NCBI GenBank assembly: GCA_963799905.1
Contig: CAWCYU010000021.1
Span: 19,628-83,627 of the forward strand
Reading direction: 5' to 3'
Source of the DNA: an uncultured Thermoleophilia bacterium
GTDB lineage: Bacteria > Actinomycetota > Thermoleophilia > Gaiellales > Gaiellaceae
Length of the DNA stretch: 64,000 bases
Shown here in pieces: positions 891 to 21,032 of the stretch (positions within the stretch are counted from its first letter, which is position 1; each line of letters starts with the position of its first letter). The notes below the pieces were generated by a model, which made no database searches, was not told the origin of the DNA, and saw only the letters and a list, made by a program, of their open reading frames with translations. Made by a program: the position numbers and the translations under genes.

Positions 891-952
891 CCAGCCTCGT
901 CGGCACGGGGCCGGCGAGCCCACCGTGCCGACGGAACACGTCGGCGCCCTCT

Positions 953-974
953 CGTCCGCAGCTGGCCCTACCCT
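953..974 (+). promoter_or_regulatory. Putative PafBC-type (RecA-NDp-like) promoter of ruvC
   Basis: CGTCCG-N10-TACCCT, ending 5 nt before GTG 980. Confidence 0.65.
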
Positions 975-979
975 ACTCC

Positions 980-1469
980 GTGAAGGTTCTCGGCATCGAC
1001 CCAGGGACGGCTGCGTGCGGCTACGGGATCGTCCACGAAGGCGGCGGGCGGGTCACGGCACTGGCGTCAGGGTGTTGGACGACAAGCGCCCGCGCAACGG
1101 CCGGAACTGCGGCTGCGGGCGATCTTCGAGGGGGTGCAGGGGCTCATCGCCGAGCACGCACCGGACGCCGTCGCACTCGAGGAGTCGTATGTGGGAGCCG
1201 ACGCGCGCATCGCACTCTTCGTCGGTCAGGCTCGCGGCGCCGCCATGGTCGCCGCCGCCACCGCGGGCGTCGAGTGCACCGAATATGCGCCGGCACGCGT
1301 GAAGCAGTCCGTCTGCGGCCACGGCCGCGCCGACAAGGGTCAGGTGCAGCGGATGGTGAAGATGCTGCTCTCGCTCGACGAGATCCCCGCGACCTCGCAC
1401 GAGGCTGATGCGCTCGCGGTTGCGATCTGCCACGCGTTGATGCCCCCGCTCGCCCGGATGGCCTCGTGA
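980..1469 (+). CDS. ruvC: Holliday junction resolvase RuvC (frameshift near 1100)
   Basis: N-terminal VLGIDPG...CGYG, then ALEESY, GRADKGQVQRMV and HEADALAVAICH in the second frame. Confidence 0.95.
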
Positions 1470-2038
1470 TCGCGCGGCTGCGCGGAACGCCTGCGGGTCG
1501 CAGCGCGGACGGCCTCCTGCTGGACGTCAACGGCGTGGGCTACCTCGTCGCGGCGACGCCCGGCGTGATGCGGCGCGCCGAGGTGGGCGGCGAGATCAGC
1601 GTGGAGACGTTCCTCCACGTACGCGAGGATGCTCTGCAGCTCTACGGATTCGTCGATGCCTCGGAGCGCGAGCTCTTCACGCAGCTTCTCACGGTGAGCG
1701 GGATCGGCCCGAAGGTCGCGCTCGCGGTCGTCTCCGGGTCGCCCGCCGTCGGAGCTGCGACGCGCGATCGCCCTCGAGGATCACGCGCGGTTCCAGGCGA
1801 TCCCCGGGATCGGCAAGAAGACGGCGGAGCGCATCGTGCTGGAGCTGAAGGAGAAGGTCTCGCTCCTCGGCGACGACTCGATCGCGTCGCCGCCGAGGAG
1901 ACGCCCACGCATCTCGTCGCGCGCGATGCCCTGGTCGAGCTCGGCTATTCCGTGCTCGAGGCGGAACAGCGACTCGCCGAGGTCGACCCGGAGCTGCCGC
2001 CCGCCGAGCGCGTGCGGTTGGCCCTCCGGGCGGCGTAG
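1466..2038 (+). CDS. ruvA: Holliday junction branch-migration protein RuvA (two compensating frameshifts, near 1750 and 1890)
   Basis: [25 protein letters not shown] and [27 protein letters not shown] is in an alternate frame, then ALVELGYS. Confidence 0.95.
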
Positions 2039-2106
2039 CTCGAGGTGACCGGTCGCAGCCGAGCGATTGCCTGCCATTCGGCTCCGGGGTGCTCGAGTCG
2101 GCGGCC

Positions 2107-2128
2107 TGTCCGGGCGCGTGCCTAGGCT
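2107..2128 (+). promoter_or_regulatory. Putative PafBC-type promoter of ruvB
   Basis: TGTCCG-N10-TAGGCT, 5 nt before GTG 2134. Confidence 0.65.
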
Positions 2129-2133
2129 GTCTC

Positions 2134-3142
2134 GTGAGCGACCGCGTCACGACTGCCGTGCTGGACCCCGAGGACGAGGAGGTCGAGCGCTCGCTGCGCC
2201 CGCGCCGGCTCGACGATTTCGTCGGCCAGGAGCGCATCAAGGAACAGCTCGGGATCGCCCTCGACGCCGCCAAGGGACGCGACGAGGCGCTCGACCACGT
2301 GCTCCTCGCCGGGCCACCGGGCCTCGGCAAGACGACCCTCGCGCAGATCATCCGCGAGGAGCTCGGAGTCGGCCTCCGCACCGTCGCCGGGCCGGCGCTC
2401 GAGAAGAAGGACATCGCGGCCATCCTCACGGCGATCGAGCCGCGTGACGTGCTCTTCATCGACGAGATCCACCGTCTCAACCGCGCGGCCGAGGAGATCC
2501 TGTACCCGGCACTCGAGGATTTCCGGCTCGACATCGTGTTCGGGCAGGGGGCGGCTGCGCGCACGCTCACGATCGACCTGCCGCCGTTCACGCTCGTCGG
2601 TGCCACGCACACGTTCGGGCCTGCTGACGACGCCGCTGCGCGACCGTTTCGGGATGACCTTCCGGCTCGGGTACTACGAGCCGGGGCAGCTCGGCACGAT
2701 CGTGCGCCGTTCGGCGGGCATCCTCGCCGTCGAGATCGACGACGACGCCGCCGACGAGATCGCGAGCCGGTCGCGGGGAACGCCCAGGATCGCGAACCGG
2801 ATCCTGCGGCGCGTGCGCGATGTCGCCGAGGTACGCCACGCAGGGAAGATCACGAACGACGTCGCACGCGAAGCGCTGGAGCTGCTCGAGGTGGACGGCG
2901 TCGGGCTGGAGCGGATCGACCGGGAGCTGCTGTCGGCGGTCGCAAACAAGTTCGGCGGCGGCCCCGTCGGCCTCTCGACGCTCGCCGTCGCTCTCGGCGA
3001 GGAAACGGACACGATCGAGGATGTCTACGAGCCGTACCTGCTTCAGCTCGGTTTTCTTCAGCGCACCCCGCGCGGGCGGACGATCACAGAGCTCGGCCGC
3101 AAGCACGTCGGTGCCGTCCGCGTCGACGGGAGCCTGTTCTAG
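2134..3142 (+). CDS. ruvB: Holliday junction branch-migration ATPase RuvB (frameshift near 2610)
   Basis: [30 protein letters not shown] and LYPALEDF. The second frame has [22 protein letters not shown] and EPYLLQ...RTPRGR. Confidence 0.97.
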
Positions 3143-3165
3143 TGCCCGAGCTCTGGACGCCGGGG

Positions 3166-3468
3166 ATGACGGACTCGCTCGAAGACCTCGTGAAGCGCAT
3201 CGAGCGGAGGATCGAGGGCTTTCGTGCCGAGCACGGCCTGGAGCGCGCCGGCGTCAGCGTCGAGCTCGCCGACGGCTCACTCCACCGGCTCGCGTCCCTC
3301 TCGGCTGAACCGGGCTTCGGGTTCGTGACGCTCTGCCCACATCGCGACAGCGGCGAACCGGAGGAGCGGATCGTTCCGCTCGGGGCCATCCGCGAGATCC
3401 GGATCGCGGTTGCAGACGACGAGCAACGGCTCGGTTTCGCGCCGCCGCCGGACGGTTCTAGCGCCTGA
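3166..3468 (+). CDS. Hypothetical protein (100 aa)
   Basis: ATG 3166 gives [15 protein letters not shown]...; protein-like composition. The ORF track merges it with the ruvB frame-1 read-through. Confidence 0.7.
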
Positions 3469-3919
3469 ACTGCAGGGCACGCCAGCTCGGGGTTGGTGCG
3501 AGCTCGAGCAGCGCGCGTCCACCTTCCGGCTCGGCGTATCCGAAATCCCCCGACCCTTCGTCGAAGCTGACCTCGAGCAACCCTTCCTTGACCCGATGAT
3601 CGAGATAGGCACCGCGAAACACGAGCTTCCGAAGCCAGTAGACGAGCGACTCTCCGTCGTTCAGCGAGACGCGCTCCCAGTGCCGCATCAGATAGTGGCC
3701 GAGCGAGCTCCGCGGCTCGGCGATCCTGCCGTCGGCTGCCAGTTCGACGAGATCGAGCGTCTCCTCCTGGTCGAGGTCGCTATCCGCGATCAGCGCCAGC
3801 TTGACCGCGGCGGCCATGACGCGCTCCCGGAAGTCGTCGGCACCGAAGGCGAACCGGTACCCGAGAAACTCGAGCACGTAGTCGTCGCCTGACGTGTAGT
3901 TGAGCTCGCCCTGAGGCAC
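3458..3919 (-). CDS. Hypothetical protein (153 aa)
   Basis: Protein-like ORF ([12 protein letters not shown]...[16 protein letters not shown]) with normal codon bias. Confidence 0.75.
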
Positions 3920-3942
3920 GAGAGGAAAGCTACCCTCAGCGT

Positions 3943-4146
3943 GTGAACTGGCGTCTCGCGATACCGATGACGCTGGCCGTGCTCGTCATCTGGCTCCTGG
4001 GCGCGGCGGTCACGAAGTACACGCTGGAACAGATGGCCTACCTCGCGCCGGTGGCGGTCGTCGTCGTCGGGGCGACGATCGGTCTCGTCCTCCTCTGGGT
4101 CAAGATCGTGCGGGAATCGATGCGTGCCAGAGGGAAGCTGCGCTGA
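3943..4146 (+). CDS. Small membrane protein (2 TM helices)
   Basis: Two hydrophobic stretches and a basic C-tail. A TACCCT -10-like element lies just upstream. Confidence 0.75.
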   Translation: MNWRLAIPMTLAVLVIWLLGAAVTKYTLEQMAYLAPVAVVVVGATIGLVLLWVKIVRESMRARGKLR

Positions 4147-4193
4147 GGGAAAGGGCGCGTCGGGCTTCTCCACCGCGACGGCTCCTCATCCTC

Positions 4194-4215
4194 CGTCCGG
4201 GGCTGGACCTATCGT
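4194..4215 (+). promoter_or_regulatory. Putative PafBC-type promoter of recJ
   Basis: CGTCCG-N10-TATCGT, 6 nt before ATG 4222. Confidence 0.65.
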
Positions 4216-4221
4216 GGCTGC

Positions 4222-6103
4222 ATGGTCGGAAGCTGGCAGGTCGAGCCCGTGTCGTTCCCCGAGGTCGCAGCCCTCATGGCGGAGCTCGACGTCTCCGAGA
4301 CCGTTGCGAGCGTGCTCGTGCGGCGAGGGCTGGGCGATCCCGACGCGGCGCGCGCGTTCCTCCAGCCCGAGGGCATCTCGCACGATCCCTTGTTGCTCGG
4401 GGACATGGCGGCGGCTGTCGCGCGGCTGCGCACGGCCGTCGAGCGGGGAGAGCGGATCTGCGTCCACGGCGACTACGACGTCGACGGCATCTGCGCTACG
4501 GCGCTCGCGACGCTGACGTTGAGAGAGCTCGGAGCCGACGTCGTCTGGCACCTCCCGAGCCGGTTCGAGGAAGGCTACGGCGTCTCCACGACGACGATCG
4601 CGCGGCTCGCGGAGGAAGGCGTGAAGCTTCTCCTCACGGTGGACTGCGGCATCACCGCCTCCGCAGAGGTCGAGGATGCCCGCCGGCTCGGTGTCGACGT
4701 GATCGTCACCGACCACCATCGCCCGGCGGAGACGCTGCCGCAGTGCCCGATCGTCGCCACGCGGCCCTCCGTCTATCCCTTTGCGGAGCTGTGCGGGACC
4801 GGTGTGGTCGTCAAGCTCGCGCAGGCGCTCCTCGGCGTCGACCACCCGATGCTCGCCCGCCATGCCGATCTCGTCGCCCTCGCCACGATCGCCGATGTCG
4901 TCCCGCTCGTCGACGAGAACCGTGCACTCGCGACGATCGGCCTCCGGGGTCTCGCGCGCACCCAGAAACCCGGGCTCCGCGCCCTGATGCGCGTGGCCGG
5001 TGTCGACCCCGCCACCGTCGACGCAACCGCAGTCGCGTTCCGGTTGGCCCCCAGGATCAACGCGGCCGGGCGCCTGGGGCGGCCCGACGTCGCACTGCAT
5101 CTCGTTCTCACCGATGACCCGCGCGAAGCAGATCTGCTCGCGAACGAGCTCGAGACGTTGAACCGCGACCGTCAGGCGGTCGAGGAGAAGATCGTGCGCG
5201 AGGCCGTCGCGGTTGTCGACGGCTGGTCTGCCCAGCAGCGCAGCCGCCGCGCCTACGTCGTCTGGGGTGAGGGCTGGCACGAGGGGGTGATCGGGATCGT
5301 CGCCTCGCGGCTCGTGGAGCGGTTCGGCCGTCCTGTCGTACTGATCGCCGGCGAGGGGGAGCGCTGGAAGGGCTCGGGGCGGTCGGTGCCGAGCTTCGAT
5401 CTGCATGCGGGCCTCTCCGCGTGCGCCGTCCACCTCGAGCGATTCGGCGGCCACCGTGCCGCCGCCGGCCTGTCGATCCTCCCAGACCGGCTGGAAGCGT
5501 TCGCGGATGCCTTCGCCACCCACGCCGACGCCGAGCTCGTCGACGAGGACCTCACGCCCGATGACGCGGATCGATGCGATCGTGCCCGCCTCGGCGCTCA
5601 CGCTCGACCTCGCCCGGGAGCTCGAGCGGCTCGCGCCCTTCGGGCTCGGGAACCCCGATGTGACGTTGCTCGTGGCGGGGTGCGAGGCCGTGGGACCGGC
5701 GACGGTCGGGGAAGGGAAGCACCTGAGGTTCCGGGTCCGCCAGCACGGCCGGGACGCCGGGAGTGCGATCGCCTTCGGTCTCGGCGGCCAGCTCCAGCGG
5801 CTACAGGGCGACGCGCGCTTCGACGTCGCGTTCAGGCTCAAGCAGAACCGCTGGAACGGCACGGTCGCCCCGCAACTCGTCGTGCGCCGCGTGTTCGATA
5901 CCTCAGCTGGATACGAGGAGCTACGGACGTGGCTGGCCGAGCTCTGGCGCGCCGGCGAGCCGGCGTGGACGCCGGAGGCTCGGCGGATCTTCGGCGAGCT
6001 CGCGCTCGAGGGCGCAGGCGGCAAGCGGCAGCTGCTCGAATCGCCCACGTTTCGGGCGTTGCTGGAACACGGCGTACCGCTCACCCTGCCTCGAGCCGCC
6101 TGA
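4222..6103 (+). CDS. recJ: Single-stranded-DNA exonuclease RecJ (frameshift near 5560)
   Basis: HGDYDVDG, TVDCG, TDHH, PRINAAGR, GSGRS and FGGHRAAAG. The C-terminal part (LAPFGLGNP, GEGKHL) is in the 5405..6103 frame. Confidence 0.96.
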
Positions 6104-6229
6104 GCTCTGAAGCCTGGGCTCGGGCGATCTGCCGGTGTCACGACAGTAGGCGCGCCTCGACGAACCAGAGCCGATGGGTGGGTCCCTCAACGCTGCCCCG
6201 TGCGCAGTCGCCCGTGCAACACCCGTGCC

Positions 6230-6337
6230 CTAGCGCGAGGTCGTGAAACCGCGCGGCGGCCGGGCGATCGACCGCTCGAGCTCGGCGAGCAGCCGCAGCA
6301 CCCTGCGACGTTCCAGATATCTCCGCAGCGGGCCCAT
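6230..6337 (-). CDS. Putative small basic protein (35 aa)
   Basis: MGPLRRYLERRRVLRLLAELERSIARPPRGFTTSR*, in the recJ-relA gap, with high GC3. It is below the ORF-track cutoff. Confidence 0.45.
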   Translation of the reverse strand: MGPLRRYLERRRVLRLLAELERSIARPPRGFTTSR

Positions 6338-6405
6338 GGCTCTCTGCTCTTCGGCAGAAAGGAGCGCGTTCCTGTCACTCGAAAGGGCACGAGTACACTG
6401 AAACC

Positions 6406-8612
6406 ATGGCCGTCGTCGATGCCGAACGCCATCAGAACGACCTCGTCAGTGAGCTGATCGCGAACGTCGAGGCCTACAACCCTGGCGTCGACAAGGAGCT
6501 GATCCGCCGCGCCTTCGACGAGGCCGAGCGCGCCCACCAGGGTCAGGTGCGGCGCTCGGGTGAGCCGTTCATCGACCATCCGCTGGGGGTGGCGCTGATC
6601 TGCGCGCAGCTGCACCTCGACGCCCAGACGATCGCTGCAGCGCTGCTCCACGACGTGATCGAGGACACCGAGACCGAGCTCGACGAGCTGCGCGCCGTCG
6701 TTCGGGCCGGAGATCGTCGCAGCTCGTCGAAGGCGTGACCAAGTTGACCCGGATCAGCTTCCAGAGCCGCGAGCAGGCGGAGGCGGAGAACTACCGCAAG
6801 ATGATCGTGGCGATGGCCCAGGACGTCCGTGTGATCCTGATCAAGCTCGCGGATCGGCTCCACAACATGCGCACGATCGAGTACCTCGGCAAGCAGAAGC
6901 AGGTGCAGAAGGCGAAGGAGACGATCGAGGTCTACGCGCCGCTTGCCCACAGACTCGGCATCCATGCCGTCAAGTGGGAGCTCGAGGATCTCTCGTTCCA
7001 GATCCTCCACCCCCGCAAGTACGCCGAGATCAAGGCAATGGTCGCCGACCGTCGCGCCGACCGCGAGGCCCAGGTCGAGACCGCGGCTGCGCAGCTGAAA
7101 GAGGATCTCGAGAAGGCGGACATCCCCGCCGACATCGCCGGACGCGCGAAGCACTTCTACTCGATCTACGACAAGATGGCCAAGAAGGGTCGCGAGTTCA
7201 ACGAGATCTACGACCTGACGGCGATGCGCGTGCTGATCGAGCGCGGGAGCGACGAAGGCACACGTGACTGCTACGCCGCACTCGGGATCATCCACGCGCT
7301 CTGGAAGCCGATGCCGGGCCGGTTCAAGGACTTCATCGCGATGCCGAAGCTGAACCGTTATCGCTCGCTCCACACGACGGTGATCGGGCCGAACGGGACG
7401 CCGCTGGAGATCCAGGTGAGGACGCGCGAGATGCACGAGGAGGCCGAGTTCGGCGTCGCCGCGCACTGGCTCTACAAGCGGGGCCGGTCGTCCAAGGGTG
7501 ACGACGAATGGGTTGCGTGGGTGAAGACGTTGATGGATTGGCAGGGCGACGACCAGGACGCCGCCGAGTACATGCGCACGCTGCGCACTGACCTGTTCGA
7601 CGACGAGGTGTACGTCTTCACCCCCAAGGGCGAGGTGAAGACCCTTCAGGCCGGCAGCACGCCCATCGACTTCGCGTACGCCGTCCACACCGACGTCGGC
7701 CACAAGACGGTCGGCGCCAAGGTCAACGGCCGCATCGTGCCGCTGCACTACAAGCTGAAGAACGGCGACTTCGTCGAGATCCTGACGTCGAAGTCGGGCC
7801 GGGGGCCCTCGCGCGACTGGATGTCGGTCGCCGCTTCGTCGCGTGCACGCAACAAGATCCGACAGTGGTTCCAGCGCGAGACGAAGGGCGAGACGGAGGC
7901 GAAGGGACGCGAGGCGCTCGATCAGGCCCTGAAGGCGCAGAACCTTCCGTATCGCAAGCTCCAGGGCTCGGCCGTGCTGGCGCAGGTGATCCGCGATCTG
8001 GGGTTCAAGAAGGCAGAGGACTTCTACCTCGCAGTCGGCTCCGGGAAGCTCGGGACCGGGCAGGTGGTGAACAAGGTCCTGCAGAAGCTGAAGACGGATC
8101 AGGTCGCAGAGGAGCCGACGGTCACGTTGAAGACGCCGAAGGCGCGGTCGGCGGTCGCGGGCGACAGCCTCGGGATCGTCGTGCAGGGCGTCGACGAGGT
8201 GCTCGTCCGGCTTGCGAAATGCTGTACGCCGGTACCGGGCGACGACATCAAGGGCTACATCTCGCTGGGACGCGGGATCACGATCCATCGAGCCGACTGC
8301 CCCAACGTGAAGGCTCTGATGCGGAATCCCGAGAGGTTCACGCCGGTGGAGTGGGAGGGAAGCGCGAAGACGAGCTTCAGGGTGCAGATCGCGGTCGAGG
8401 CGTGGGACCGGGCACGCCTGCTCGAGGACGTGGCACGGACGTTCTCCGAGCACGGCGCGAACATCGTCGCCTACGGCGGCACAGTCGAGGACGGGATGGC
8501 GAAGAACTGGTACACGGCCGAGCTCGGGGACGTCAACGACCTGCGGTCGCTGCTCTCGGCGCTGCGGCATCTCGACGCGGTGTTCGACGCGTATCGCGTG
8601 ACGCCGAACTAG
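6406..8612 (+). CDS. relA: Bifunctional (p)ppGpp synthetase/hydrolase Rel (frameshifts near 6700-6720)
   Basis: HD domain (AHQGQVRRSGEPF, LLHDVIED), IKLADRLHNMRT, synthetase (GRAKH, YRSLHT, EIQVRT), TGS, AKCC and ACT domains. Confidence 0.97.
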
Positions 8613-8643
8613 GGTACGGCGCGCGGGAGGCGTACCGGCAGCG

Positions 8644-9276: not shown

Positions 9277-9296
9277 GTCGGGAAGGTATCAGCGCC

Positions 9297-9385
9297 TCCC
9301 TCGAACAAGGGATCACCCCTCGTATGGGGCACCTCGATCGAATCTGAGTCACTCGATCGAGGGATTGCGTGACCCGATCGGGTGC
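9297..9385. promoter_or_regulatory. Cluster of related 16-bp imperfect palindromes (putative operator sites)
   Basis: TCCCTCGAACAAGGGA (9297-9312), TCACTCGATCGAGGGA (9349-9364) and TGACCCGATCGGGTGC (9370-9385). Confidence 0.45.
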
Positions 9386-9413
9386 CTACAAGTGTGGGCA
9401 GGGGAGAGGGTCA

Positions 9414-9454
9414 CGTCGCCGCGGCCCCCGGTTCTCCGGGAAGCCGCGGCGACG
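9414..9454 (-). terminator. GC-rich hairpin, likely terminator of the pmm-thioesterase-GAF operon
   Basis: CGTCGCCGCGGC / GCCGCGGCGACG 12-bp stem plus an inner CCCGG/CCGGG, a few nt after the stop at 9462. Confidence 0.6.
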
Positions 9455-9461
9455 GGTTAGC

Positions 9462-10258: not shown

Positions 10259-10262
10259 CGCC

Positions 10263-11609: not shown

Positions 11610-11674
11610 GTCCCGATGCTACAGGGCTGCCGCAGGCCCAATGCTGCAGGTGCTCGTGCCCGTATCCTTCGGGG

Positions 11675-14617
11675 ATGGAGCGGAAGCTGGCAACGGTGCT
11701 TTTCGTCGATCTCGTCGGGTCGACGCAGCTCGTCGCGAGCGCGGACCCCGAGGTCGTCCGCTCCCGCCTGAACGGGTTTTTCGACCAGGTCGAGCATTGC
11801 ATCACGGCGCACGGCGGGATCGTCGAGAAATACGCGGGCGACGCCGTGATGGCCGCATTCGGGCTGCCTCTTGCACACGAGGACGATCCGGAGCGCGCCG
11901 TGCGGGCAGCGCTGGCGATCGTCGATGCAGTCGTCGACCTCGGTCTCGAGGTGCGGATCGGGATCGAGACCGGCGAGATCCTCGCGGACGAGAACGACAC
12001 CACTTTCGCGACGGGGCTCGCGATCAACGCGGCCGCACGGCTCCAGCAGGCGGCGGCCCCGGGGGAGGTCATCCTCGGCCCCGATGCCGAGCGGCTGACG
12101 CGCGGCACCGTCGTGGCGACGCCGCTCGGGGCGCAAGCAGCACGCGGCTTCCCGGCGGGGGTCGAGGCGTTCCGCGTCGTCTCGGTTTCCGAGGAGAGCG
12201 GCCGCCGGCTCGTCCTGTCGGTCCCGTTCGTGGGGCGCGAGGAAGAGCTCGAGCTGCTCCACAACACGTTCGCCCGCGCTGTGCGTGACAAGCGTGCGCA
12301 TCTCGTCACCGTGTACGGCGGCGCCGGCGTCGGCAAGTCGCGACTCGCGCGAGAGTTCATGGCCGGCGTCGAGCGGTCGACCATCCTCGCCGGACGCTGC
12401 CTGCCCTACGGGGAAGGCGTCACGTACTGGGCCGTGGCCGAGATGGTCAAGGTCGCTGCGGGCATCACGGACGACGACTCCGTCGACGCCGCCGCGGAGA
12501 AGTTGCGGAAGTGCTGCGGCGACGAGGCGGTCGCCGACCTGCTCGCTCTCGCATCGGGTGTACTCGATGCGGTCGGGGGAGAGCGCTCGGCCTCGGAGAT
12601 CGCGTGGGCTGCTCAGACCTGGGCGAAGGAGCTCGCCGATCTGCAGCCGCTCGTGCTCGTGTTCGAAGACATCCACTGGGCCGAGGAGCCGATGCTCGAC
12701 CTGATCGAGCACCTGGCAGTGGGCGTCAAGGATGTCCCGTTGTTGATCCTTTGCCTCGCCCGTGCCGACCTCCTCGACGAGCGCTCGACGTGGGGTGGGG
12801 GCAACGTGCGGGCGACGTCGGTCGAGTTGGAGTCGCTGCCGCGCGAGGACAGCGCACGGCTGGTCGACCTGCTCGTGGACGGCGACCGCGCCGGCCTGTC
12901 CGACGACCAGCGCGACGCGGTGCTCGCGCGGACCGAGGGCAACCCCCTCTTCATCGAAGAGACGGTGAGGATGCTGCTCGAGGCCGACGGCGAGCCGACG
13001 GGCATCCCGCATACCGTCCAGGCGATGATCTCGGCCCGGATCGACCGGCTGCCCGTCTCGGAGCGGACGGTGCTGCGCCGGGCGGCCGTCGCGGGACGCA
13101 TGTTCTGGTCGGGCGCGGTCGAGACGCTGGGTGACACACAGGTCGAGGACGGCGGGCTGGACGAGCTCGTTGCCCGGGACTTCCTCGTGCGCGAGCCTCG
13201 CTCCACGATCCGCGGCGAGGAGGCCTACCGCTTCAAGCACGTCCTGATCCGCGACGTCGCGTACGCAGGGCTTTCGAAATCGTCCCGTGCACTGCTCCAT
13301 CACCAGATGGCGCAGTGGCTCGCGGGCCGTCCGGTCGCGGACGAGCTCGTCGAGATCAGGGCCTACCACCTCGACGAGTCCGCCCAGCTCTCGGCCGAGC
13401 TCGAAGGGCGCGTGCCGGCCGATCTCGGTGCCGAGGCGGCTGCGGCACTCGAGCAGGCAGGTCGCCGTGCGCTCGCGCGCGAGGCGAACACCGTCGCCCG
13501 GCGCCTGCTCGTCCGCTCAGCCGAGCTCGAGCCGACGCTCGAGCGGCGGTATCTCGCCGCACGAGCGGCCTGGCGGATGACGGACATCCCAACTGTCTCG
13601 TGCGAAATGCTCGACATCAGCGAGGCGGCGCACGAGTCGGGGGACGCGCGAATCGAGAGCCGGGCCCTCACGGCGCTCGCGCGGGTGGCGCTGTTCCGCG
13701 ACACGGACAACGACCGGGCGCGCGAGCTCGTCGGACGGGCGCTGGACGTCGTGGAGACGACCGACGACGTCGGAAGGTTCGACGCGCTCGAGGTCCTCGG
13801 CACCGTCTGGTACTGGGAAGGCGAATTGGACGAGGTCGAGCGCCTGGCGACCGAGCGCCTTGCGATCGCGGAGCGAATCGGGCGCCCGGACCTGCAGAGC
13901 GGCGTGTTGCTCGAGCTCAACGACCTCTACAGTGCCCGCCTCGAGACCGAGCGCGCCTGCGAGCCGTTGGCGCGCGCGATCGAGCTCGCAGGCGACAGCG
14001 GCAGCCCCACGACGCGTGCCTGGATCCTTCGTGCACGGGGGCGGCAGGCGACGCTCGAGGGGCGATTCGCCGACGCCGAGGCCTCGCTCGAGGAAGCACG
14101 GGCCCTCTTCGCCGAGAGCGGTGCCGCAATGACGCTCGGCCGGACCCTCAACTGGCTCGGCGTCGTGGCGCTGAAGCGGAACGATCCCGCACGCGCAGAG
14201 GTGATCCTGCGCGAGGCGATCCGGATCCTGAAGCCGCTCGAGGACAGGGGAACACTCGTCGAGAGCCAGCGCCTGCTGGCCCAGACGCTGCTCGAAGAGG
14301 GACGGCTCGACGAAGCGGAGCGGCTCGCTCTCGAGGCGCGGGAGACCGTCGGTGCCACGGATGTCTTTTCGAGCTCCACGACGCGATTGGCGCTCGGCCT
14401 GGTGCGGGCTGCTCAGGGACGAGATGACGAGGCGGAGCGCCTCCTGCGCGAGGCCGACGATGTCCTGCGACCCACCGGCTTCCGGCGGCACCGGATCGAA
14501 CCGCTCGAAGCGCTCTCGGCATTCTTGCGCGTCCGGGACCGCGACGACGAAGCGGCGGTGGTGGAAGAGACGTTGGTGGCGCTCGTCGGCGAGCCCGCGG
14601 CATCGCAGAGCACCTGA
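11675..14617 (+). CDS. Class III adenylate/guanylate cyclase fused to AAA(STAND)-ATPase and TPR repeats
   Basis: LFVDLVGST, KYAGDA and INAAARL. Walker A GGAGVGKS, FEDIHWAE, EGNPLFIEE, YRFKHVLIRDVAY and a helical repeat tail follow. Confidence 0.92.
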   Translation: MERKLATVLFVDLVGSTQLVASADPEVVRSRLNGFFDQVEHCITAHGGIVEKYAGDAVMAAFGLPLAHEDDPERAVRAALAIVDAVVDLGLEVRIGIETGEILADENDTTFATGLAINAAARLQQAAAPGEVILGPDAERLTRGTVVATPLGAQAARGFPAGVEAFRVVSVSEESGRRLVLSVPFVGREEELELLHNTFARAVRDKRAHLVTVYGGAGVGKSRLAREFMAGVERSTILAGRCLPYGEGVTYWAVAEMVKVAAGITDDDSVDAAAEKLRKCCGDEAVADLLALASGVLDAVGGERSASEIAWAAQTWAKELADLQPLVLVFEDIHWAEEPMLDLIEHLAVGVKDVPLLILCLARADLLDERSTWGGGNVRATSVELESLPREDSARLVDLLVDGDRAGLSDDQRDAVLARTEGNPLFIEETVRMLLEADGEPTGIPHTVQAMISARIDRLPVSERTVLRRAAVAGRMFWSGAVETLGDTQVEDGGLDELVARDFLVREPRSTIRGEEAYRFKHVLIRDVAYAGLSKSSRALLHHQMAQWLAGRPVADELVEIRAYHLDESAQLSAELEGRVPADLGAEAAAALEQAGRRALAREANTVARRLLVRSAELEPTLERRYLAARAAWRMTDIPTVSCEMLDISEAAHESGDARIESRALTALARVALFRDTDNDRARELVGRALDVVETTDDVGRFDALEVLGTVWYWEGELDEVERLATERLAIAERIGRPDLQSGVLLELNDLYSARLETERACEPLARAIELAGDSGSPTTRAWILRARGRQATLEGRFADAEASLEEARALFAESGAAMTLGRTLNWLGVVALKRNDPARAEVILREAIRILKPLEDRGTLVESQRLLAQTLLEEGRLDEAERLALEARETVGATDVFSSSTTRLALGLVRAAQGRDDEAERLLREADDVLRPTGFRRHRIEPLEALSAFLRVRDRDDEAAVVEETLVALVGEPAASQST

Positions 14618-14680
14618 GCGGGAACCAAACCCGTGCCGCCGTGCAGTCGGAGTGTGACTGCGAACTGGAGGCTGCGTCCG

Positions 14681-14967
14681 ATGCGATTCCTCGCGCCCGT
14701 CCTCGTACCGCTGACAATCCTGGTCTCCCTCGCGTTTCCGGCCTGGACCTGACGAGAGGCGAGGCGGTCGCTCGGGGAGAGTCACTCGGAGCCCCGGCCG
14801 GCAGCGGCTGGACGACGCGGGTGTTGCAGGTGGCCGCCGCCGCGGCCGTGTTGTGCCTCGCGCTCCTCCTCGGCATCGTCCTCGTCCGGCGCCGTCCGCC
14901 ACGAAGCGCGGCGGCGCAGGGAATCGACGCTGCTCGACCCGGAGGAAGCGGCGCCGTCAGCCGGTGA
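14681..14967 (+). CDS. Putative small membrane protein (possible 1-nt frameshift near 14745)
   Basis: A GGAGG RBS precedes MRFLAPVLVPLTILVSLAFPA. The second TM, VAAAAAVLCLALLLGIVLVRRR, is in an adjacent frame. Confidence 0.4.
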
Positions 14968-15772
14968 GCACAGCCTTGATCGCCTGGCTCGATGCCTCGT
15001 CGGGCGACTCGGAGATCACGGTCGCAGGACGGTCGAACCGCTCGAGTGCCTCGCGAAGCGGGTCGGCTCGGAGCGTGCCCTCGCCGTACGGCAGATGGTG
15101 CTTCTCGTTGCGATTCGCATAGGCGATGTCGGAGAAGTGGATGTGGAACGGGGCGTCGGGGGTGAGAACCTCGTCGACCGCTTCGAGCGCAGCGGCGAAC
15201 AGGCCGGCCTCGAGGTATGCGCCGTCGCTCGTGGCGTGCATGTGAGCGAAATCGAGCACCGGCCGCACCCAGCCCGTCTGTTGCGCGATCTCGACGACAT
15301 CGTCCACCGAGCCGAGGTCGCGTACGCGACCCATCACCTCGACGCCGAAGGGAACGGCACGGCCCTTGCCCTCCAGTCGCTCGCGGAGCGTGCCGAGTTG
15401 CTCCACGACCGAGGCGATCGCGTCCTCGCGCGTGCGGCCGAGGAGAAAGCCTGGATGGAAGACGACGACTTCTGCGCCGCACGCGGCAGCGATCCCCGCG
15501 CTGCGGTCGAGCGCGCCGACGGCGGACGAGAACTTTCGTCCGGCGGCCTCGACGTGGCCCATGAACCCGAAGAGCGGAGCGTGCACCGACAGCGCCACGT
15601 CGGCGGAGCGGGCGGCCGCGCCGAGTCGCTCGGCCCAGGGATAGTCCATCCAGAACCCGCCCTCGAAGTCGATCTCGCACGCGTCGTAGCCGCGCTCGAG
15701 CAGAATCGCGACCGCCCGCTGCGGGTCGTCGCGCGCCGGAATCCCCGGCAGGCCGACACGAATACGCCCCAT
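14957..15772 (-). CDS. nfo: Endonuclease IV-like TIM-barrel AP endonuclease
   Basis: Zn-ligand pattern SVHAP, VFHPG, VEVMG, LDFAH, HIHFS, KHH, ISESP. ATG 15772 is preceded by a TAGAGT -10. Confidence 0.8.
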   Translation of the reverse strand: MGRIRVGLPGIPARDDPQRAVAILLERGYDACEIDFEGGFWMDYPWAERLGAAARSADVALSVHAPLFGFMGHVEAAGRKFSSAVGALDRSAGIAAACGAEVVVFHPGFLLGRTREDAIASVVEQLGTLRERLEGKGRAVPFGVEVMGRVRDLGSVDDVVEIAQQTGWVRPVLDFAHMHATSDGAYLEAGLFAAALEAVDEVLTPDAPFHIHFSDIAYANRNEKHHLPYGEGTLRADPLREALERFDRPATVISESPDEASSQAIKAVLTG

Positions 15773-15789
15773 TTGCGGGAACTCTATGT

Positions 15790-15811
15790 CGTCCGACCCC
15801 CTCCGTACGCT
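15790..15811 (+). promoter_or_regulatory. Putative PafBC-type promoter of the 78-aa gene
   Basis: CGTCCG-N10-TACGCT, 6 nt before ATG 15818. Confidence 0.6.
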
Positions 15812-15817
15812 TTGGTC

Positions 15818-16054
15818 ATGGATCAGCCGACCCGGATCGACCTGCTCGAGCTCGATATCGACCTCCGTCTCGCCGATCTCTGGCGCGAGGCAGCAGACGT
15901 CACCGAATGGAATCTCGAGGTCGTGTCGGCGTTCATGCGGGCTGCCTACGGGAAGGGCTACTGCGACGCCTTCACGGAGGACTCGCCGGGCTCGCTCTGC
16001 CATGATCACGGGTACGAGATTCCCGGGCGGCCGCAGTCCGTCCGTGCCGCCTGA
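15818..16054 (+). CDS. Hypothetical protein (78 aa)
   Basis: MDQPTRIDLLELDIDLRLADLW...FMRAAYGKGYCDA...LCHDHGY. The leaderless promoter motif directly upstream supports this start. Confidence 0.75.
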   Translation: MDQPTRIDLLELDIDLRLADLWREAADVTEWNLEVVSAFMRAAYGKGYCDAFTEDSPGSLCHDHGYEIPGRPQSVRAA

Positions 16055-16102
16055 CGCGATTCTCTGCTCCCTGGAGTGCCGACCGCGGGGTATCCTCCAG
16101 AG

Positions 16103-16507
16103 GTGGCCAGGAAGCGTTCTCCGGCGCGTCTCGTCATTGCCCTATCGATCGCGGCGGTGCTCGCAGTCTTCCTTCTCTATACCTCGATCGCGGGTGGTGG
16201 CACGCCGTCGGTGAAGCCGAGCGAGCTCGATGCGCACAAGGGCGCTGTCTCGCTCGTCGGGCAGGTCGTCGGCAAGCCGACGGGCGATGCGCACGCAGGC
16301 GGGCTTCGGTTCGTTCTCCGTGACGTCAAGGATCCGTCGAGTGTGACCGTTGCTGTCCTGTACACGGGTAGCGTGCCCGACCTGTTCGCGTCCGGGCGCG
16401 ACATCGTCGTCGACGGCACGCTGCAGAACGGCACCTTCGTGGCCACTCCCGGTTCGATGATCACGAAGTGCCCCTCCAAGTACACGGCCACGCCGGCCAC
16501 GCAGTAG
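16103..16507 (+). CDS. ccmE: Cytochrome c maturation heme chaperone CcmE (CxxxY variant)
   Basis: N-terminal TM, YTGSVPDLF and C-terminal KCPSKY. Directly precedes ccmF. Confidence 0.9.
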   Translation: MARKRSPARLVIALSIAAVLAVFLLYTSIAGGGTPSVKPSELDAHKGAVSLVGQVVGKPTGDAHAGGLRFVLRDVKDPSSVTVAVLYTGSVPDLFASGRDIVVDGTLQNGTFVATPGSMITKCPSKYTATPATQ

Positions 16508-18514
16508 ATGGCTGAGCTCGGGCGGGCGGCTCTCGTCGTCACGCTCGGACTGTGCCTCTACGCCGTCGTCGCAGGCGCGTATGCAGCCTCGAGAAGACGC
16601 CGGAGGCTCGCCCAGTCTGCCCGGAACGCGCTCATCGCGGCGTTCGGCTCCACGCTCGTGGCGGCGGGTGTGTTGGCAGCCGGCTTCCTTCGCAACGACT
16701 TCTCGCTCGTGTACGTCGCCGATCACTCGAACCGCTCGCTGTCGGGCCCCTACAAGCTCTCCGCGTTCTGGGGAGGGCAGGAGGGCTCGTTGCTGCTGTG
16801 GCTCCTGATCCTGACCGGCTACGCAGCACTTGCCGTCTGGGTCAATCGCAACCGCACGCGCGATCTGGTCGTCTGGGTGACGCCGGTGCTGGGAGGGATC
16901 GCCGTCGGCTTCGCGTTCCTGCTCGTCGCCGTCGCGAGCCCGTTTGCGCTCCAGGCGGCGCCGCTCGACGGTGCGGGACTCAACCCGAGCCTCCAAAACC
17001 CGTACATGATGGCTCACCCGCCGTTTCTCTACCTCGGCTACGTCGGTCTCGCGGTCCCGTTCGCGTTCGCCATGGGGGCGCTCCTTTCCGGACGAACGGA
17101 CGAGCGCTGGATCGTCGCCACCAGGCGCTGGACGCTGATCGCATGGACGGCCCTCGGCGTCGGACAGCTGCTCGGCGCCCACTGGGCGTACGTCGAGGTC
17201 GGCTGGGGCGGCTACTACGCCTGGGATCCGGTCGAGAACGCCGCGCTGATGCCGTTCCTCGCCGCGACGGCGTTTCTCCACTCGGTGATGATCCAGGAGA
17301 AGCGCGGGATGCTGAAGGTCTGGAATGTCGTCCTCGTGGCGCTCGCGTTCTGCCTCTCCCTCTTCGGGACCTTTCTCACACGCTCAGGCGTCGTCAATTC
17401 GATCCACTCGTTCTCGCAGAGCGACATCGGGCCCTGGTTCCTCGGCTTCATCGTGGTCGCGGTGTCCTTCGCGACGGCGTTGATCGTGTGGCGGCTCCCG
17501 TTGCTCCGCTCGACCACGAGACTCGAGTCGCTCGTCTCGCGCGAGGCGGTGTTCCTTTACAACAATCTGCTCCTCGTCGCGCTCTGCCTGACGATTCTCT
17601 GGGGGGTGGCGTGGCCGATCCTCTCGGAGGCAGTGCGGGGGCAATCGGTCGTCGTCGGCCGTCCCTACTACGACTTCTTCCTGCGCATCTTCGGCCTCCC
17701 GTTGCTTCTGTTGATGGGCGTGGGCCCTCTGATCGCCTGGCGACGCGCCTCGGTCCGCGGCCTCGGCCGCACCTTCCTCTGGCCCGCCGCCGTAGCCGTC
17801 ATAGCGGGCGTTGTGCTCCTCGCGCTCGGTGCAGGATCGTCGATCCCGGGGCTGATCGCATACACGTTCTCGGCGTTCGTCCTGGCGGCGATCGGGCTCG
17901 AGTTCGTGCGCGGAACACGTGCCCGGCGGGCGCTCTCCCACGAGTCGTGGCCCGTTGCATTCGCCTCGCTGATCGGCCGAAACCGTCGCCGCTACGGCGG
18001 GTACGTCGTCCATGTCGCGATCGTGCTGCTCGCGATCGGGATCGCCGGCTCGAGCTCGTACGACTCCGTCGTCGACGGGAAGCTCTCGCCGGGACAGTCG
18101 CTCGCCGTGTCCGGGTACACGGTCACCTACAGAGGGTTGACCGAGCGGGAGACCGCGCACGCAGCGGAGGTCCGCGCTCAGCTGGCGGTGAGCCGCGACG
18201 GCCGCGACCTCGGCAGGCTCGAGGCGGGAAAGAACTCGTACAAGATCGCCGGCCCCGATCCCCAGGTCTCCTCGGAAGTGGGCATCCGCACGGACTACGT
18301 GACCGGTGAGGATCTCTTTGTGATCCCGGAGCAGATCAACGACGACGGCACGGTGTACTTCCGCATCTTCGTCAAGCCACTCGTCAACCTGATCTGGCTC
18401 GCCGGGCTCGTCTTCCTGCTCGGCTCGGTGATCGCGCTCTGGCCCGACGCCCGTGAGCAGCGACGCCTCGCCGTGCGCTATGACGAGGCCGGCAGCACCG
18501 TACGCGGTCGATGA
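16508..18514 (+). CDS. ccmF: Heme lyase CcmF
   Basis: WGGQEGSLLLW, HPPFLYLGY, WGGYYAWDPVENA (WWD domain), TRSG and SIHSF. Confidence 0.97.
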   Translation: MAELGRAALVVTLGLCLYAVVAGAYAASRRRRRLAQSARNALIAAFGSTLVAAGVLAAGFLRNDFSLVYVADHSNRSLSGPYKLSAFWGGQEGSLLLWLLILTGYAALAVWVNRNRTRDLVVWVTPVLGGIAVGFAFLLVAVASPFALQAAPLDGAGLNPSLQNPYMMAHPPFLYLGYVGLAVPFAFAMGALLSGRTDERWIVATRRWTLIAWTALGVGQLLGAHWAYVEVGWGGYYAWDPVENAALMPFLAATAFLHSVMIQEKRGMLKVWNVVLVALAFCLSLFGTFLTRSGVVNSIHSFSQSDIGPWFLGFIVVAVSFATALIVWRLPLLRSTTRLESLVSREAVFLYNNLLLVALCLTILWGVAWPILSEAVRGQSVVVGRPYYDFFLRIFGLPLLLLMGVGPLIAWRRASVRGLGRTFLWPAAVAVIAGVVLLALGAGSSIPGLIAYTFSAFVLAAIGLEFVRGTRARRALSHESWPVAFASLIGRNRRRYGGYVVHVAIVLLAIGIAGSSSYDSVVDGKLSPGQSLAVSGYTVTYRGLTERETAHAAEVRAQLAVSRDGRDLGRLEAGKNSYKIAGPDPQVSSEVGIRTDYVTGEDLFVIPEQINDDGTVYFRIFVKPLVNLIWLAGLVFLLGSVIALWPDAREQRRLAVRYDEAGSTVRGR

Positions 18515-18813
18515 ACATCGCGATCGTGTTGGGCGCGGCGCTCGCCGTCGGCTGCGTCGTGCTGGTCGCGCTCCCGTTCCTGCGCGAGCCGGAGCCCCTC
18601 TCGGACGAGCTGGACGAGCTCACACCGGAGCGGCGGCAGCGCCTCGCCCTCGCCGAGGAGCGCGATCGGGCGTTGGCGGCGCTGAAGGAGCTCGAGGCCG
18701 ATCATCGCGCCGGGCGGGTCAACGACGAGGACTACCGGGCCTCGATCGGGCCGCTGCGGCGTGAAGCGGCTGAGGCGCTGCGCGCGCTCGACGTCGGCGC
18801 GGGGCAGGGGTAG
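18511..18813 (+). CDS. CcmI-like N-terminal membrane protein
   Basis: TM followed by ALKELEADHRAGRVNDEDY, resembling the CcmI/CycH N-terminus. ATGA overlap with ccmF. Confidence 0.65.
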   Translation: MNIAIVLGAALAVGCVVLVALPFLREPEPLSDELDELTPERRQRLALAEERDRALAALKELEADHRAGRVNDEDYRASIGPLRREAAEALRALDVGAGQG

Positions 18814-18840
18814 GCCGGTCGGGGGCGAAGTCGGTCCCAC

Positions 18841-20040
18841 ATGGACCGGCGAACGGTTCTGACCGTCGTGCTCGCAACGACCCTCCTGCTGGCCGGCTCG
18901 GCCGCGGGCGATCCGGGAACCGAGAAGGCGCGACTCGACGCGCGCATCGGCGACCTGCGGGCGCAGGCCGACCAGGCGGTCGGAACGGAAGGGCTGCTGA
19001 CGACGGAGGTGAGCGGCCTGAACTCCCGGGTGCGGGCCGCAGAGGAGGCGGTAGCTACCGAGCAGGCGCGTCTGGCTGCTCTGGAAGCGTCGCTCACCGC
19101 CGAGCGCGTGCGCCTCGCCGGCCTGGAGCAGAAGATCGCCGACGAGACGGCACGCCTCGCCATCCTTCAGCGGCAGTACGCCGCTGCGCTCGCGGTGCTC
19201 GAAAAGCGGCTGCGCATGATGTACGAATCGGACTCACCCGATGTGATCTCCTTCGCGCTCGGGACGACCTCGTTCTCCGACCTGCTCGACAACCTGGAGC
19301 TGCTCAATCGCATCGGGCGCCAGGACGAGCGCATCGCCGGCACGCTCGATCACGCACGGGTCGAGCTCGAACGGACACGCGCGACGACGAAGGAGGCACG
19401 GGATGGAGCCGCTCGGTCGGAGGCGCTGATCGCCTCCCGTACGGAGGAGCAGCGGGCGACGAGGGACAGGGTGGTGGCCACCCACGACGCGCTCGCCGCC
19501 GCCGAGCGTGCGAAGGCGGGCGCGCTCTCGCAGGTGCGGGAGGATCGCGCCTCCTTCATCGCCGAGGCGGAGGGCCTCGCCGCTCGAAGTGCTGCGCTCG
19601 CGGCACGCATCGCCGCGGCCCAGAGTGCGGCGAGCGCTCCGGCGACGGGCGCAGCCGCACCCGCAGCGAGCTCGAGCGGGCAGCTCGGCTGGCCGGTTGC
19701 GGGCCCGGTGACGAGCGGGTACGGATCGCGGTGGGGAAGGATGCACGAGGGGATCGACATCGCCGTCGGCTCAGGCACCCCGGTCCACGCGGCCGCGGCC
19801 GGAACCGTCGTCTACGCCGGCTGGATGGAGGGATACGGGAACCTGATCGTGATCGATCACGGCAACGGCCTGTCGACGGCGTACGCGCACAACTCGAGCC
19901 TGATCGTCGGACAGGGAGCCGTGGTCGGGACGGGCTACGTGATCGCGCTCTCGGGCAGCACGGGCCACTCGACGGGACCGCACGTGCACTTCGAGGTGCG
20001 CGTCAACGGAGCGCCCGTCGACCCGCTCGGCTATCTGTGA
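18841..20040 (+). CDS. Secreted coiled-coil M23 peptidase (EnvC/CwlO-like)
   Basis: Signal peptide, long coiled coil, HEGID, YAH and GHSTGPHVHFE. Confidence 0.92.
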   Translation: MDRRTVLTVVLATTLLLAGSAAGDPGTEKARLDARIGDLRAQADQAVGTEGLLTTEVSGLNSRVRAAEEAVATEQARLAALEASLTAERVRLAGLEQKIADETARLAILQRQYAAALAVLEKRLRMMYESDSPDVISFALGTTSFSDLLDNLELLNRIGRQDERIAGTLDHARVELERTRATTKEARDGAARSEALIASRTEEQRATRDRVVATHDALAAAERAKAGALSQVREDRASFIAEAEGLAARSAALAARIAAAQSAASAPATGAAAPAASSSGQLGWPVAGPVTSGYGSRWGRMHEGIDIAVGSGTPVHAAAAGTVVYAGWMEGYGNLIVIDHGNGLSTAYAHNSSLIVGQGAVVGTGYVIALSGSTGHSTGPHVHFEVRVNGAPVDPLGYL

Positions 20041-20081
20041 GGTGGGCCGATCGCCGGTTGCACGCGCCGCTCCGACCCGCC

Positions 20082-20615
20082 CTACGCAGCGTCGGTCGCG
20101 GCCGCCGGAAGCGCCTCGGCCGGGATGTAGCGCAGATCTGGCAGCGCGCGCCAGCGTTCCTCGAGGCCGAGGCCGTAGCCGGCGAACAGCTCGTCCGGAA
20201 CGGTGAACCCGACGTAGCGCAGGCCGATGTTCTCGACCAGTCGTCGGTAGGGGCGATCGAGCAGCGTCACTGCAGCAATGCTCGCCGGGCCCCGCTCCGC
20301 CAGCGTCCGCGTCAGGTACGCGAGCGTCAGGCCCGTGTCGACGACATCCTCTACGAGCAGCACGTCGCGCCCGTCGATCGGCGTATCGAGGTCCTTGAGC
20401 AGCCGCACCCCGCCGCGCCCGCCGTCGGAGTAGCCCGCGAGCTCGACCACGTCGATCGCGTGCAGGATCGGCAATGCCCGCGACAGGTCTGCGAGAAAGA
20501 CCGTGCTCGACTTCAGCGGCGCGACGAGTAGCGGCTCGCGGCCTGCATAATCGGCGGCGATCTCCGCTCCGAGCTCGCGAACGCGCGCAGCGATCTCGGC
20601 GGCCGAGAGGTACAC
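20082..20615 (-). CDS. hpt: Hypoxanthine phosphoribosyltransferase-like protein (start uncertain)
   Basis: IAARVRELGAEIAADY, PRPP loop VLLVEDVVDTGLTL, and FAGYGLG...RALP. Confidence 0.85.
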   Translation of the reverse strand: MYLSAAEIAARVRELGAEIAADYAGREPLLVAPLKSSTVFLADLSRALPILHAIDVVELAGYSDGGRGGVRLLKDLDTPIDGRDVLLVEDVVDTGLTLAYLTRTLAERGPASIAAVTLLDRPYRRLVENIGLRYVGFTVPDELFAGYGLGLEERWRALPDLRYIPAEALPAAATDAA

Positions 20616-20635
20616 CGCTCCTGCCGGGTCGTGTC

Positions 20636-21004
20636 CTATGACGCGAGCTTCAGTCGGTATCGCTGGGCGAGGCGCTCGAGATCGCGCCGGTAGAAGAGCT
20701 TGACGTTGACCTCCGGGTACTGCTCTCGCAGCTCCCGCAACTTGCGGTTCTTCCGTGTCACGAGCGACTGCTTCATCACCGTCACCTCGATGTAGAGGTT
20801 TTCCTCCGGGAGGAAGAAATCCGGTGTGAAAGCACGAGTGACGCGGCCATCGGTGTCTCGCTCGAGCACGAACGAGGTCGGCTCGTACTCCCACGGGATC
20901 CCGTACCAGTCGAGGATCCTGGCGCACTCGAGCTCGATCCGGTTGGCGAACCGCGGCGGCTCTGCCCCGCGGTAGGCCTGGAACCGGTGGGATTCCGACC
21001 GCAC
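20636..21004 (-). CDS. Small PD-(D/E)XK-fold nuclease-like protein
   Basis: E...WEYEP...FTPDFFL...YIEVT pattern, as in T7 endonuclease I/TnsA-like folds. The Lys of ExK is replaced (EVT). Confidence 0.65.
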   Translation of the reverse strand: MRSESHRFQAYRGAEPPRFANRIELECARILDWYGIPWEYEPTSFVLERDTDGRVTRAFTPDFFLPEENLYIEVTVMKQSLVTRKNRKLRELREQYPEVNVKLFYRRDLERLAQRYRLKLAS

Positions 21005-21010
21005 GATTCA

Positions 21011-21032
21011 ACGGTACTCCCGCACTCGGACG
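21011..21032 (-). promoter_or_regulatory. Putative PafBC-type promoter of the nuclease-hpt operon
   Basis: The minus strand reads CGTCCG-AGTGCGGGAG-TACCGT, 6 nt before GTG 21004. Confidence 0.6.

Follow-up and report, generated by a model that had tools for sequence, protein, structure and literature searches.

A 64-kb stretch of the genome of an uncultured soil bacterium of the class Thermoleophilia, order Gaiellales (G000:C21:19628-83627, the whole of which is here called the window) contains five copies of the promoter motif YGTCCG-N10-TAnnnT, a hexameric box placed upstream of a -10 element, and encodes a naturally fused PafBC protein. PafBC is described as the main DNA-damage regulator of mycobacteria. 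We judge it likely that the boxes mark PafBC-dependent 'hybrid' promoters of a Thermoleophilia type, in keeping with a sequence-only reading of the window, made without database searches, which had proposed that the fused PafBC recognises a lineage-specific YGTCCG variant. Each of our computational tests supports that proposal, in which the binding of the box by PafBC is the step that we infer from sequence.

Promoters of this type would combine a housekeeping -10 element, TAnnnT, with a box, yCGTCCG, at about -28 to -23 and exactly 10 nucleotides (nt) upstream, and would lack a -35 element. In the mechanism that we propose, modelled by analogy on mycobacterial sigma adaptation, DNA damage would give rise to single-stranded DNA (ssDNA) that binds the WYL domains of the fused PafBC, after which the helix-turn-helix (HTH) of the PafB half would read the box, the HTH of the PafC half would dock onto domain 4 of sigma-A, and RNA polymerase would start at or next to the start codon to yield leaderless mRNAs. 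The genes behind the box would then be damage-induced, and the regulon would centre on recombinational repair (ruvC, ruvB, recJ, radA, rmuC, recA), on the supply of deoxynucleoside triphosphates (dNTPs; nrdJ) and on lexA. The mechanism itself is known; the Thermoleophilia box and helix would be a variant of the PafBC system, and no paper linking PafBC with Thermoleophilia was found in our literature search.

The box and its spacing

Pattern search of the window returns exactly five matches to YGTCCG-N10-TAnnnT, whereas dinucleotide shuffles yield 0.38 on average and at most 3. These are CGTCCG-N10-TACCCT (953..974, plus strand), 5 nt before the GTG of ruvC at 980 and thus of leaderless geometry; TGTCCG-N10-TAGGCT (2107..2128, plus), 5 nt before the GTG of ruvB at 2134; CGTCCG-N10-TATCGT (4194..4215, plus), 6 nt before the ATG of recJ at 4222; CGTCCG-N10-TACGCT (15790..15811, plus), 6 nt before the ATG at 15818 of an open reading frame (ORF) of 78 amino acids (aa); and CGTCCG-N10-TACCGT (21011..21032, minus), 6 nt before the GTG at 21004 of a 122-aa ORF. 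All five had been listed in the sequence-only reading with these coordinates and strands, and had been said to lie 5-6 nt before start codons; reading of the DNA at each site confirms that the -10 hexamer ends 5-6 nt 5' of the start codon, which is the geometry of a leaderless transcript.

The assembly to which the window belongs is a metagenome-assembled genome (MAG) of 3.57 Mb in 32 contigs, with 69% GC and 78% completeness. When the spacing k of YGTCCG-Nk-TAnnnT is varied from 0 to 25 throughout this genome, k = 10 gives 27 sites, whereas the 25 remaining values give 0-12 each (mean 6.2), a peak with Poisson P = 6e-10. Twelve of the 27 N10 sites lie 4-12 nt before a start codon supported by codon bias, compared with a mean of 1.5 at other spacings. 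Both this peak and the shuffles bear out the earlier estimate that five matches in the window are unlikely to be chance. A chance, compositional or generic GC-rich-promoter origin of the motif could draw on the approximately six matches that are expected genome-wide at any one spacing, and on counts of CGTCCG-N10 that do not exceed a reversed-pattern control in families f6 and f7 of the class and barely exceed it in f4, f5 and f8. Such an origin is refuted by the N10-specific peak, and it has against it the orthologous conservation of the sites, their enrichment at repair genes and their spread over 14 contigs with differing flanks, by which they are not repeated DNA; we regard it as extremely improbable. 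The reversed-pattern control is a poor null for a CpG-rich box, its ratios shifting with GC content, and we rely instead on the spacing scan and on how the clades differ from one another.

The genome contains approximately 685 leaderless-type promoters, in which TAnnnT is followed after 4-9 nt (mostly 6-7) by a start codon, and positional base frequencies reveal no -35 signal in this set. The box (GTCCG at the matching offset) occurs at only about 1-2% of these promoters, which marks it as specific rather than generic to promoters. This again argues against a compositional origin and extends to the genome the earlier remark that the other promoters inspected in the window lack the hexamer. At N10 we count 24 CGTCCG (background about 5), 3 TGTCCG (about 1.8), 11 CGTCGG (about 5) and 5 CGTCTG (1.6), and relaxation of single bases shows that all six box positions matter, with CGTCGG and CGTCTG as minor variants. 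The mildly enriched boxes CGTCGG, CGTCTG and CGTCAG were considered as marks of regulon members and rejected, the genes behind them being mostly unrelated (among them those for IMPDH, a carboxyltransferase, a response regulator and a TetR regulator); the dnaE gene that follows a CGTCAG box encodes the replicative type of polymerase and is not dnaE2.

In its architecture the motif resembles the mycobacterial and actinobacterial PafBC promoters (RecA-NDp/P1; PMC8635444, PMC5656591, PMC11804915), which likewise consist of a 6-nt box, N10 and TAnnnT without a -35 element. The PafBC consensus is tGTCgg(N10)tA(N3)T with the box at -23 to -28 (PMC8635444), and here too the GTC core of the box stands exactly 13 nt (GTCnnn plus N10) upstream of TAnnnT, at the same offset as in RecA-NDp promoters, and the box lies at -28 to -23. 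The sequence of the box is different: unlike tGTCgg or TGTCRgtg of RecA-NDp promoters it reads CGTCCG, with C1, C5 and G6 strongly preferred, and, unlike in the RecA-NDp set, most targets are leaderless. That the hexamer would be part of an alternative-sigma stress promoter, and no activator site at all, is a thought invited by the at least seven sigma factors with region 1.2 that the genome encodes. The element downstream is, however, the housekeeping-type TAnnnT of the approximately 685 leaderless-type promoters, and the 10-nt gap that puts the hexamer at -28 to -23 brings it too near for a -35 element, which in sigma-70 geometry needs 16-19 nt; we consider this explanation very unlikely. 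A -35-type reading of the box was also rejected on its geometry and on later literature, as was ClgR, once proposed for P1 (PMC5656591).

Genes behind the box and their conservation

The motif is enriched at DNA-repair genes genome-wide, as the sequence-only reading had predicted, standing before ruvC, ruvB, recJ (twice), radA, rmuC, lexA, nrdJ (twice) and parA/parB. Profile matches confirm ruvC, ruvB and recJ as the three repair genes behind window sites, and at least four of the five window box genes handle DNA, because to these three a nuclease-like 122-aa ORF is added. Outside the window, exact boxes precede radA, rmuC, the parA/parB locus and the second recJ copy, as well as two genes for class II ribonucleotide reductase (nrdJ), there with leaders of 74-83 nt, and lexA, where a perfect SOS box follows immediately downstream of the -10 element. 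A gene for a mug-type glycosylase lies downstream of an exact box at greater distance, and several small or unassigned ORFs also follow exact boxes. The gene set overlaps with the RecA-NDp regulon in recA, ruv genes, radA-type repair genes and lexA-regulated genes.

Of the genes at which the earlier reading had looked for enrichment, radA carries the exact motif, recA carries the box with an unusual -10 element, and uvrA and uvrB do not carry the box. At recA of the window genome the SOS box cGAACatatGTTtg is followed by CGTCCG, so that the box stands alongside a LexA box as at PafBC-controlled recA, though the hexamer 10 nt downstream is TTTCCT. The TT(T/A)CCT hexamer of recA in the window's family (L113, G000:C2 ~2290-2340; L116-L121) has no A at -11, yet is conserved across genera. 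Neither uvrA nor uvrB has a CGTCCG-type box, and both have perfect SOS boxes instead. There are 13 perfect LexA boxes (CGAAC-N4-GTTCG) genome-wide, including those of uvrA, uvrB and lexA (C30 ~15210 and ~20371; C32 ~103088); a scan that allowed one mismatch was discarded, its 384 hits being mostly meaningless, and the analysis is confined to the 13 perfect boxes plus the one at recA. The SOS regulon thus looks small and mostly separate from the box regulon. As in mycobacteria, a LexA regulon coexists with the box regulon and overlaps with it at recA and lexA. Labour appears to be split: the box precedes genes for recombination and dNTP supply, whereas genes for excision repair have LexA boxes. 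A comparable split has been described for mycobacteria (PMC8682763), a parallel that is one of analogy only.

The box is kept in relatives of the window genome, at recA in genomes across the class and also before orthologous genes of G015, a complete genome from a different genus of the same family. Among 30 recA loci across Thermoleophilia, the box precedes recA in most families. Exact YGTCCG-N10-TAnnnT is found at 14 of the 30 (f7 6/6, f4 3/5, f6 2/2, f2 1/1, f8 1/1, f3 1/7), and in the window's own family CGTCCG occupies the equivalent place in 7/7 loci with a TT(T/A)CCT-like hexamer after it; family f5 has no box at its 2/2 recA loci of the 30, nor in a third f5 genome (G004). In G015, 14 of 52 YGTCCG-N6..14-TAnnnT matches fall at N10, and the N10 sites precede orthologues of lexA, rmuC, the 122-aa ORF, the 78-aa ORF, two small ORFs and ruvC. 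Three window promoters thus recur there: that of ruvC in an orthologous N10 version (L237), that of the 78-aa ORF together with the ORF itself (L236) and that of the 122-aa ORF (L235). The recJ box is retained in the second copy of this gene in the MAG, on contig C22, and at recJ of G024 (CGTCCG), recJ of G023 having CGTCGG and that of G015 CATCCG; radA and recJ orthologues of other families have CGTCGG, CGTCCG or CATCCG at N10, or are operon-internal. The ruvB box, which is the least secure of the five window sites, is not among the N10 sites of G015.

CATCCG-N10-TAnnnT, with A in place of the 'invariant' G, is found at orthologues of box genes (G000:C5, upstream of ~52403, minus strand; recJ of G015, L248), and one such variant site is followed by an SOS box. 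Judged from these sequences, position G2 of the box may be less strict in Thermoleophilia.

For comparison outside the class, 28 further Actinomycetota genomes were sampled, comprising 2 Thermoleophilia and 26 outgroups, 17 of the latter with a PafB homologue (two unpublished genomes, G041 and G057, were excluded from all analyses). TGTC(A/G)N-N10-TAnnnT precedes recA in 11 of the 15 examinable PafB-bearing outgroups, and in 0 of 9 PafB-less outgroup genomes. Reciprocal counts of motif against reversed-pattern control in 48 genomes (24 Thermoleophilia) agree with a division along clade lines. As can be seen from these, canonical TGTCRG-N10-TAnnnT is enriched in PafB-bearing outgroups only (271 versus 73), and enriched neither in the 24 Thermoleophilia (105 versus 106) nor in PafB-less outgroups (113 versus 116). 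CGTCCG-N10-TAnnnT, in turn, gives 387 versus 304 in Thermoleophilia, with families f1-f3 and f9 alone at 199 versus 84, and 130 versus 263 outside the class (PafB-bearing 76 versus 133, PafB-less 54 versus 130).

The fused PafBC and its recognition helix

The proposed activator is encoded at 42293..44326 on the minus strand as a naturally fused PafBC of 677 aa, in which the module HTH-WYL-(WCX) occurs twice; the sequence-only reading had recognised the fused protein and its position, and its strand is here corrected to minus. Pfam profiles identify two WYL domains (residues 155-219 and in the C-terminal half), HTH_PafC (382-480) and WCX (592-660). The N-terminal half matches Mycobacterium smegmatis PafB (E 9e-21) and the C-terminal half PafC (E 5e-4), and orthologues of 75-94% identity are present in MAGs labelled Thermoleophilia, Gaiellales or Gaiella. 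The protein is thus like mycobacterial PafBC in its two HTH-WYL-WCX halves and in its conserved ssDNA-binding arginines and tyrosine: the M. smegmatis PafB residues needed for ssDNA binding, R181, Y196, R204, R208, R211 and R214 (PMC11804915), are 6/6 kept as R183, Y198, R206, R210, R213 and R216 (alignment to 7p5x). With both halves in one polypeptide it resembles three known natural fusions, those of Arthrobacter aurescens (PDB 6SJ9), Kocuria rhizophila and Thermobifida fusca (PMC6789036). Its match to 6SJ9 is weak (E 2.4e-14) and confined to the WYL regions, and the Thermoleophilia fusion differs in its divergent recognition helix. As for the putative docking partner, the contact residues of the PafC-half HTH on sigma-A domain 4 (R416, R442 and S446) were compared. 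Of seven sigma candidates, the one that best fits SigA (L253:1222-2316) carries R315 and R341 where R416 and R442 would fall and Asn345 where S446 would, in a tentative numbering by chain offset.

The recognition helix of the PafB-half HTH comprises residues 41-57 (SDEAFARRFYSDRAELT; codons 44156..44206, minus strand; alignment to 7p5x chain AY) and reads FARRFYSDRAELT, compared with FSRMFERDKNELR in mycobacteria. The changes relative to M. smegmatis PafB are M47R, E49Y, R50S, K52R and R56T, so that R50 and R56 of the mycobacterial helix are missing here and R47, Y49 and R52 are present instead. Residues of the HTH that contact the backbone or form the thymine pocket, and R46, are kept (K5, R8, S40, E42, A43, R46, Y76), with Phe in place of W70. 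The signature F.RRF(Y/F/H/L)(S/A/E/D/M)DR, which stands where RMFERDK is canonical, is present in 27/27 Thermoleophilia of nine families, and position 50 is S, A, E, D or M in all 27, against Arg in 17/17 outgroup PafB proteins. In M. smegmatis, R46 and R50 of the PafB HTH read the GTC triplet, and their joint mutation abolishes PafB function; the PafBC box and both of these arginines have been called nearly invariant in the Actinobacteria (PMC8635444). Here R46 is present and R50 is Ser. The comparison of recognition helices that the earlier reading had suggested thus reveals a helix that differs from the canonical one exactly in Thermoleophilia, in which the canonical box is not enriched, and this is suggestive of changed specificity, as far as sequences can tell.

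With less assurance than for the promoter assignment, we lean towards a class-wide respecification, in which PafB lost Arg50 (RMFERDK to RRFY[S/A]DR), the promoters moved from TGTCRG to CGTCCG and the fusion works without the Pup-proteasome. The helix changes (loss of R50, with R47, Y49 and R52) would then cause the switch of the box. If true, an activator and its class of promoters would have changed specificity together, in nature and across a whole clade, which would provide an orthogonal box/helix pair with which to dissect the reading of the -26 element by the PafB-half HTH. A deep-branching and abundant soil class appears to retain the mechanism and to change both the box and one base-reading arginine, which would show that a regulon is able to drift as a unit and would give structure-function studies of sigma adaptation a natural experiment to draw on. 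Motif prediction based on the mycobacterial consensus misses Thermoleophilia lineages, and the sites described here amount to a first testable damage-regulon map for the largely uncultured Gaiellales, of relevance to sigma adaptation, WYL regulators and regulon evolution.

A real damage-regulon box could also be served by another activator, be it one of two further regulators encoded in this genome or some other factor. These two are single-chain HTH_11-WYL(-WCX) proteins (C5:~98645-99817 and C29:~312929-314557), and their presence, together with a PafB that is devoid of R50, whose mutation with R46 is so detrimental in M. smegmatis, lends this alternative what appeal it has. The box, however, has the spacing, position and GTC core of PafBC promoters and precedes recA, the classic target of PafBC, in genomes across the class. 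PafBC is present in 27/27 Thermoleophilia searched, yet the canonical box is not enriched there. Single-chain WYL regulators usually have palindromic or repeat sites, and the box is asymmetric. DriD (Caulobacter), DdaA (Acinetobacter) and SiwR (M. smegmatis) are like the system described here in being ssDNA-sensing WYL activators of an SOS-independent damage response with a site near the -10 element, but they are homodimers on palindromes or repeats, whereas here a single asymmetric hexamer is paired with a PafB/PafC pseudo-heterodimer. We hold another activator to be unlikely.

Several observations weigh against assignment of the box to the fused PafBC, beyond the two additional WYL regulators. 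R50, the reported reader of one GTC guanine, is absent though GTC is still preferred, and the co-variation of helix and box is a single clade-level event, that is, a correlation with an effective n of 1. The pafBC gene lies outside any pafA operon, its neighbours coding for an HATPase_c protein, an Fer4_16 protein and an aldehyde dehydrogenase, and the Pup ligase (PF03136, pafA) was not found in the 78%-complete MAG, which does not establish its absence; in both respects the system is unlike mycobacterial PafBC. About 6 of the 27 N10 sites are expected by chance, and some of the genes that follow a box are not DNA-related (an AI-2E transporter, a TMEM175-like channel and an amino-acid permease). 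At recA, the window's family has TT(T/A)CCT after the box in place of TAnnnT. The ruvB box is lost from the second copy of its locus on C22, which has GCGCCG there, and duplicate loci of about 80% identity in the MAG cause recJ and nrdJ to be counted twice.

Window genes and the state of the assembly

Contig C22:30095-35357 is a second copy of window positions 1-6555, the ruvCAB-recJ block, with 79-86% nucleotide identity; this copy has intact ruvC and ruvB genes and a recJ with an in-frame stop, no box precedes its ruvB, and the ruvC promoter reads CGTCCG-N12-TACCCT, that is, with N12 spacing. The nrdJ loci, C1:55666-60766 and C29:141277-146377, are 83% identical, flanks included. The MAG thus probably mixes two related populations or carries duplications, in addition to indel errors, and recJ and nrdJ should therefore count once each. 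In the window, ruvC (980..1469, plus) is split by a frameshift into a frame that starts at 980 and one at 1134-1469, which contain positions 1-35 and 50-148 of the Pfam RuvC profile, respectively. Likewise ruvB (2134..3142, plus) is split into a frame from 2134, with RuvB_N, and one at 2444-3142, with AAA_lid_4 and RuvB_C. Both frameshifts look like assembly indels rather than decay, because the C22 copy has both genes intact. The single-stranded-DNA exonuclease gene recJ (4222..6246, plus) matches NCBIfam TIGR00644 with 418.6 bits (cut-off 396.9) and Pfam DHH and DHHA1.

The box and coordinates of the fifth site stand as first read. As the gene behind it a 307-aa phosphoribosyltransferase was considered and rejected, the start at 21004 belonging to another frame; the gene is instead the 122-aa ORF (20636..21004, minus), directly followed in the region 20082-21004 (minus) by an hpt-like gene with the HGPRT domain in its frame. 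The 122-aa ORF matches Pfam Phage_endo_I below the cut-off (E = 5.8e-5, weak), and its AlphaFold2 model (pLDDT 74) retrieves PD-(D/E)xK nucleases among Foldseek ranks 1-11, weakly and at E>=4e-3. The predicted fold appears to be PD-(D/E)xK-like (T7 endonuclease I-like), an assignment of fold and not of catalysis. The 78-aa ORF (15818..16054, plus), to which no function is assigned, has no Pfam or NCBIfam match and lies between ccmE and a divergent AP_endonuc_2 gene (14957-15772, minus) that encodes an endonuclease IV-like TIM barrel. The leaderless-type promoter of this AP_endonuc_2 gene (TAGAGT) overlaps the box region on the opposite strand and is itself without a box. Finally, the 122-aa ORF has 5937 relatives, many of which have been named 'hypoxanthine phosphoribosyltransferase' by JGI despite lacking an HGPRT domain.

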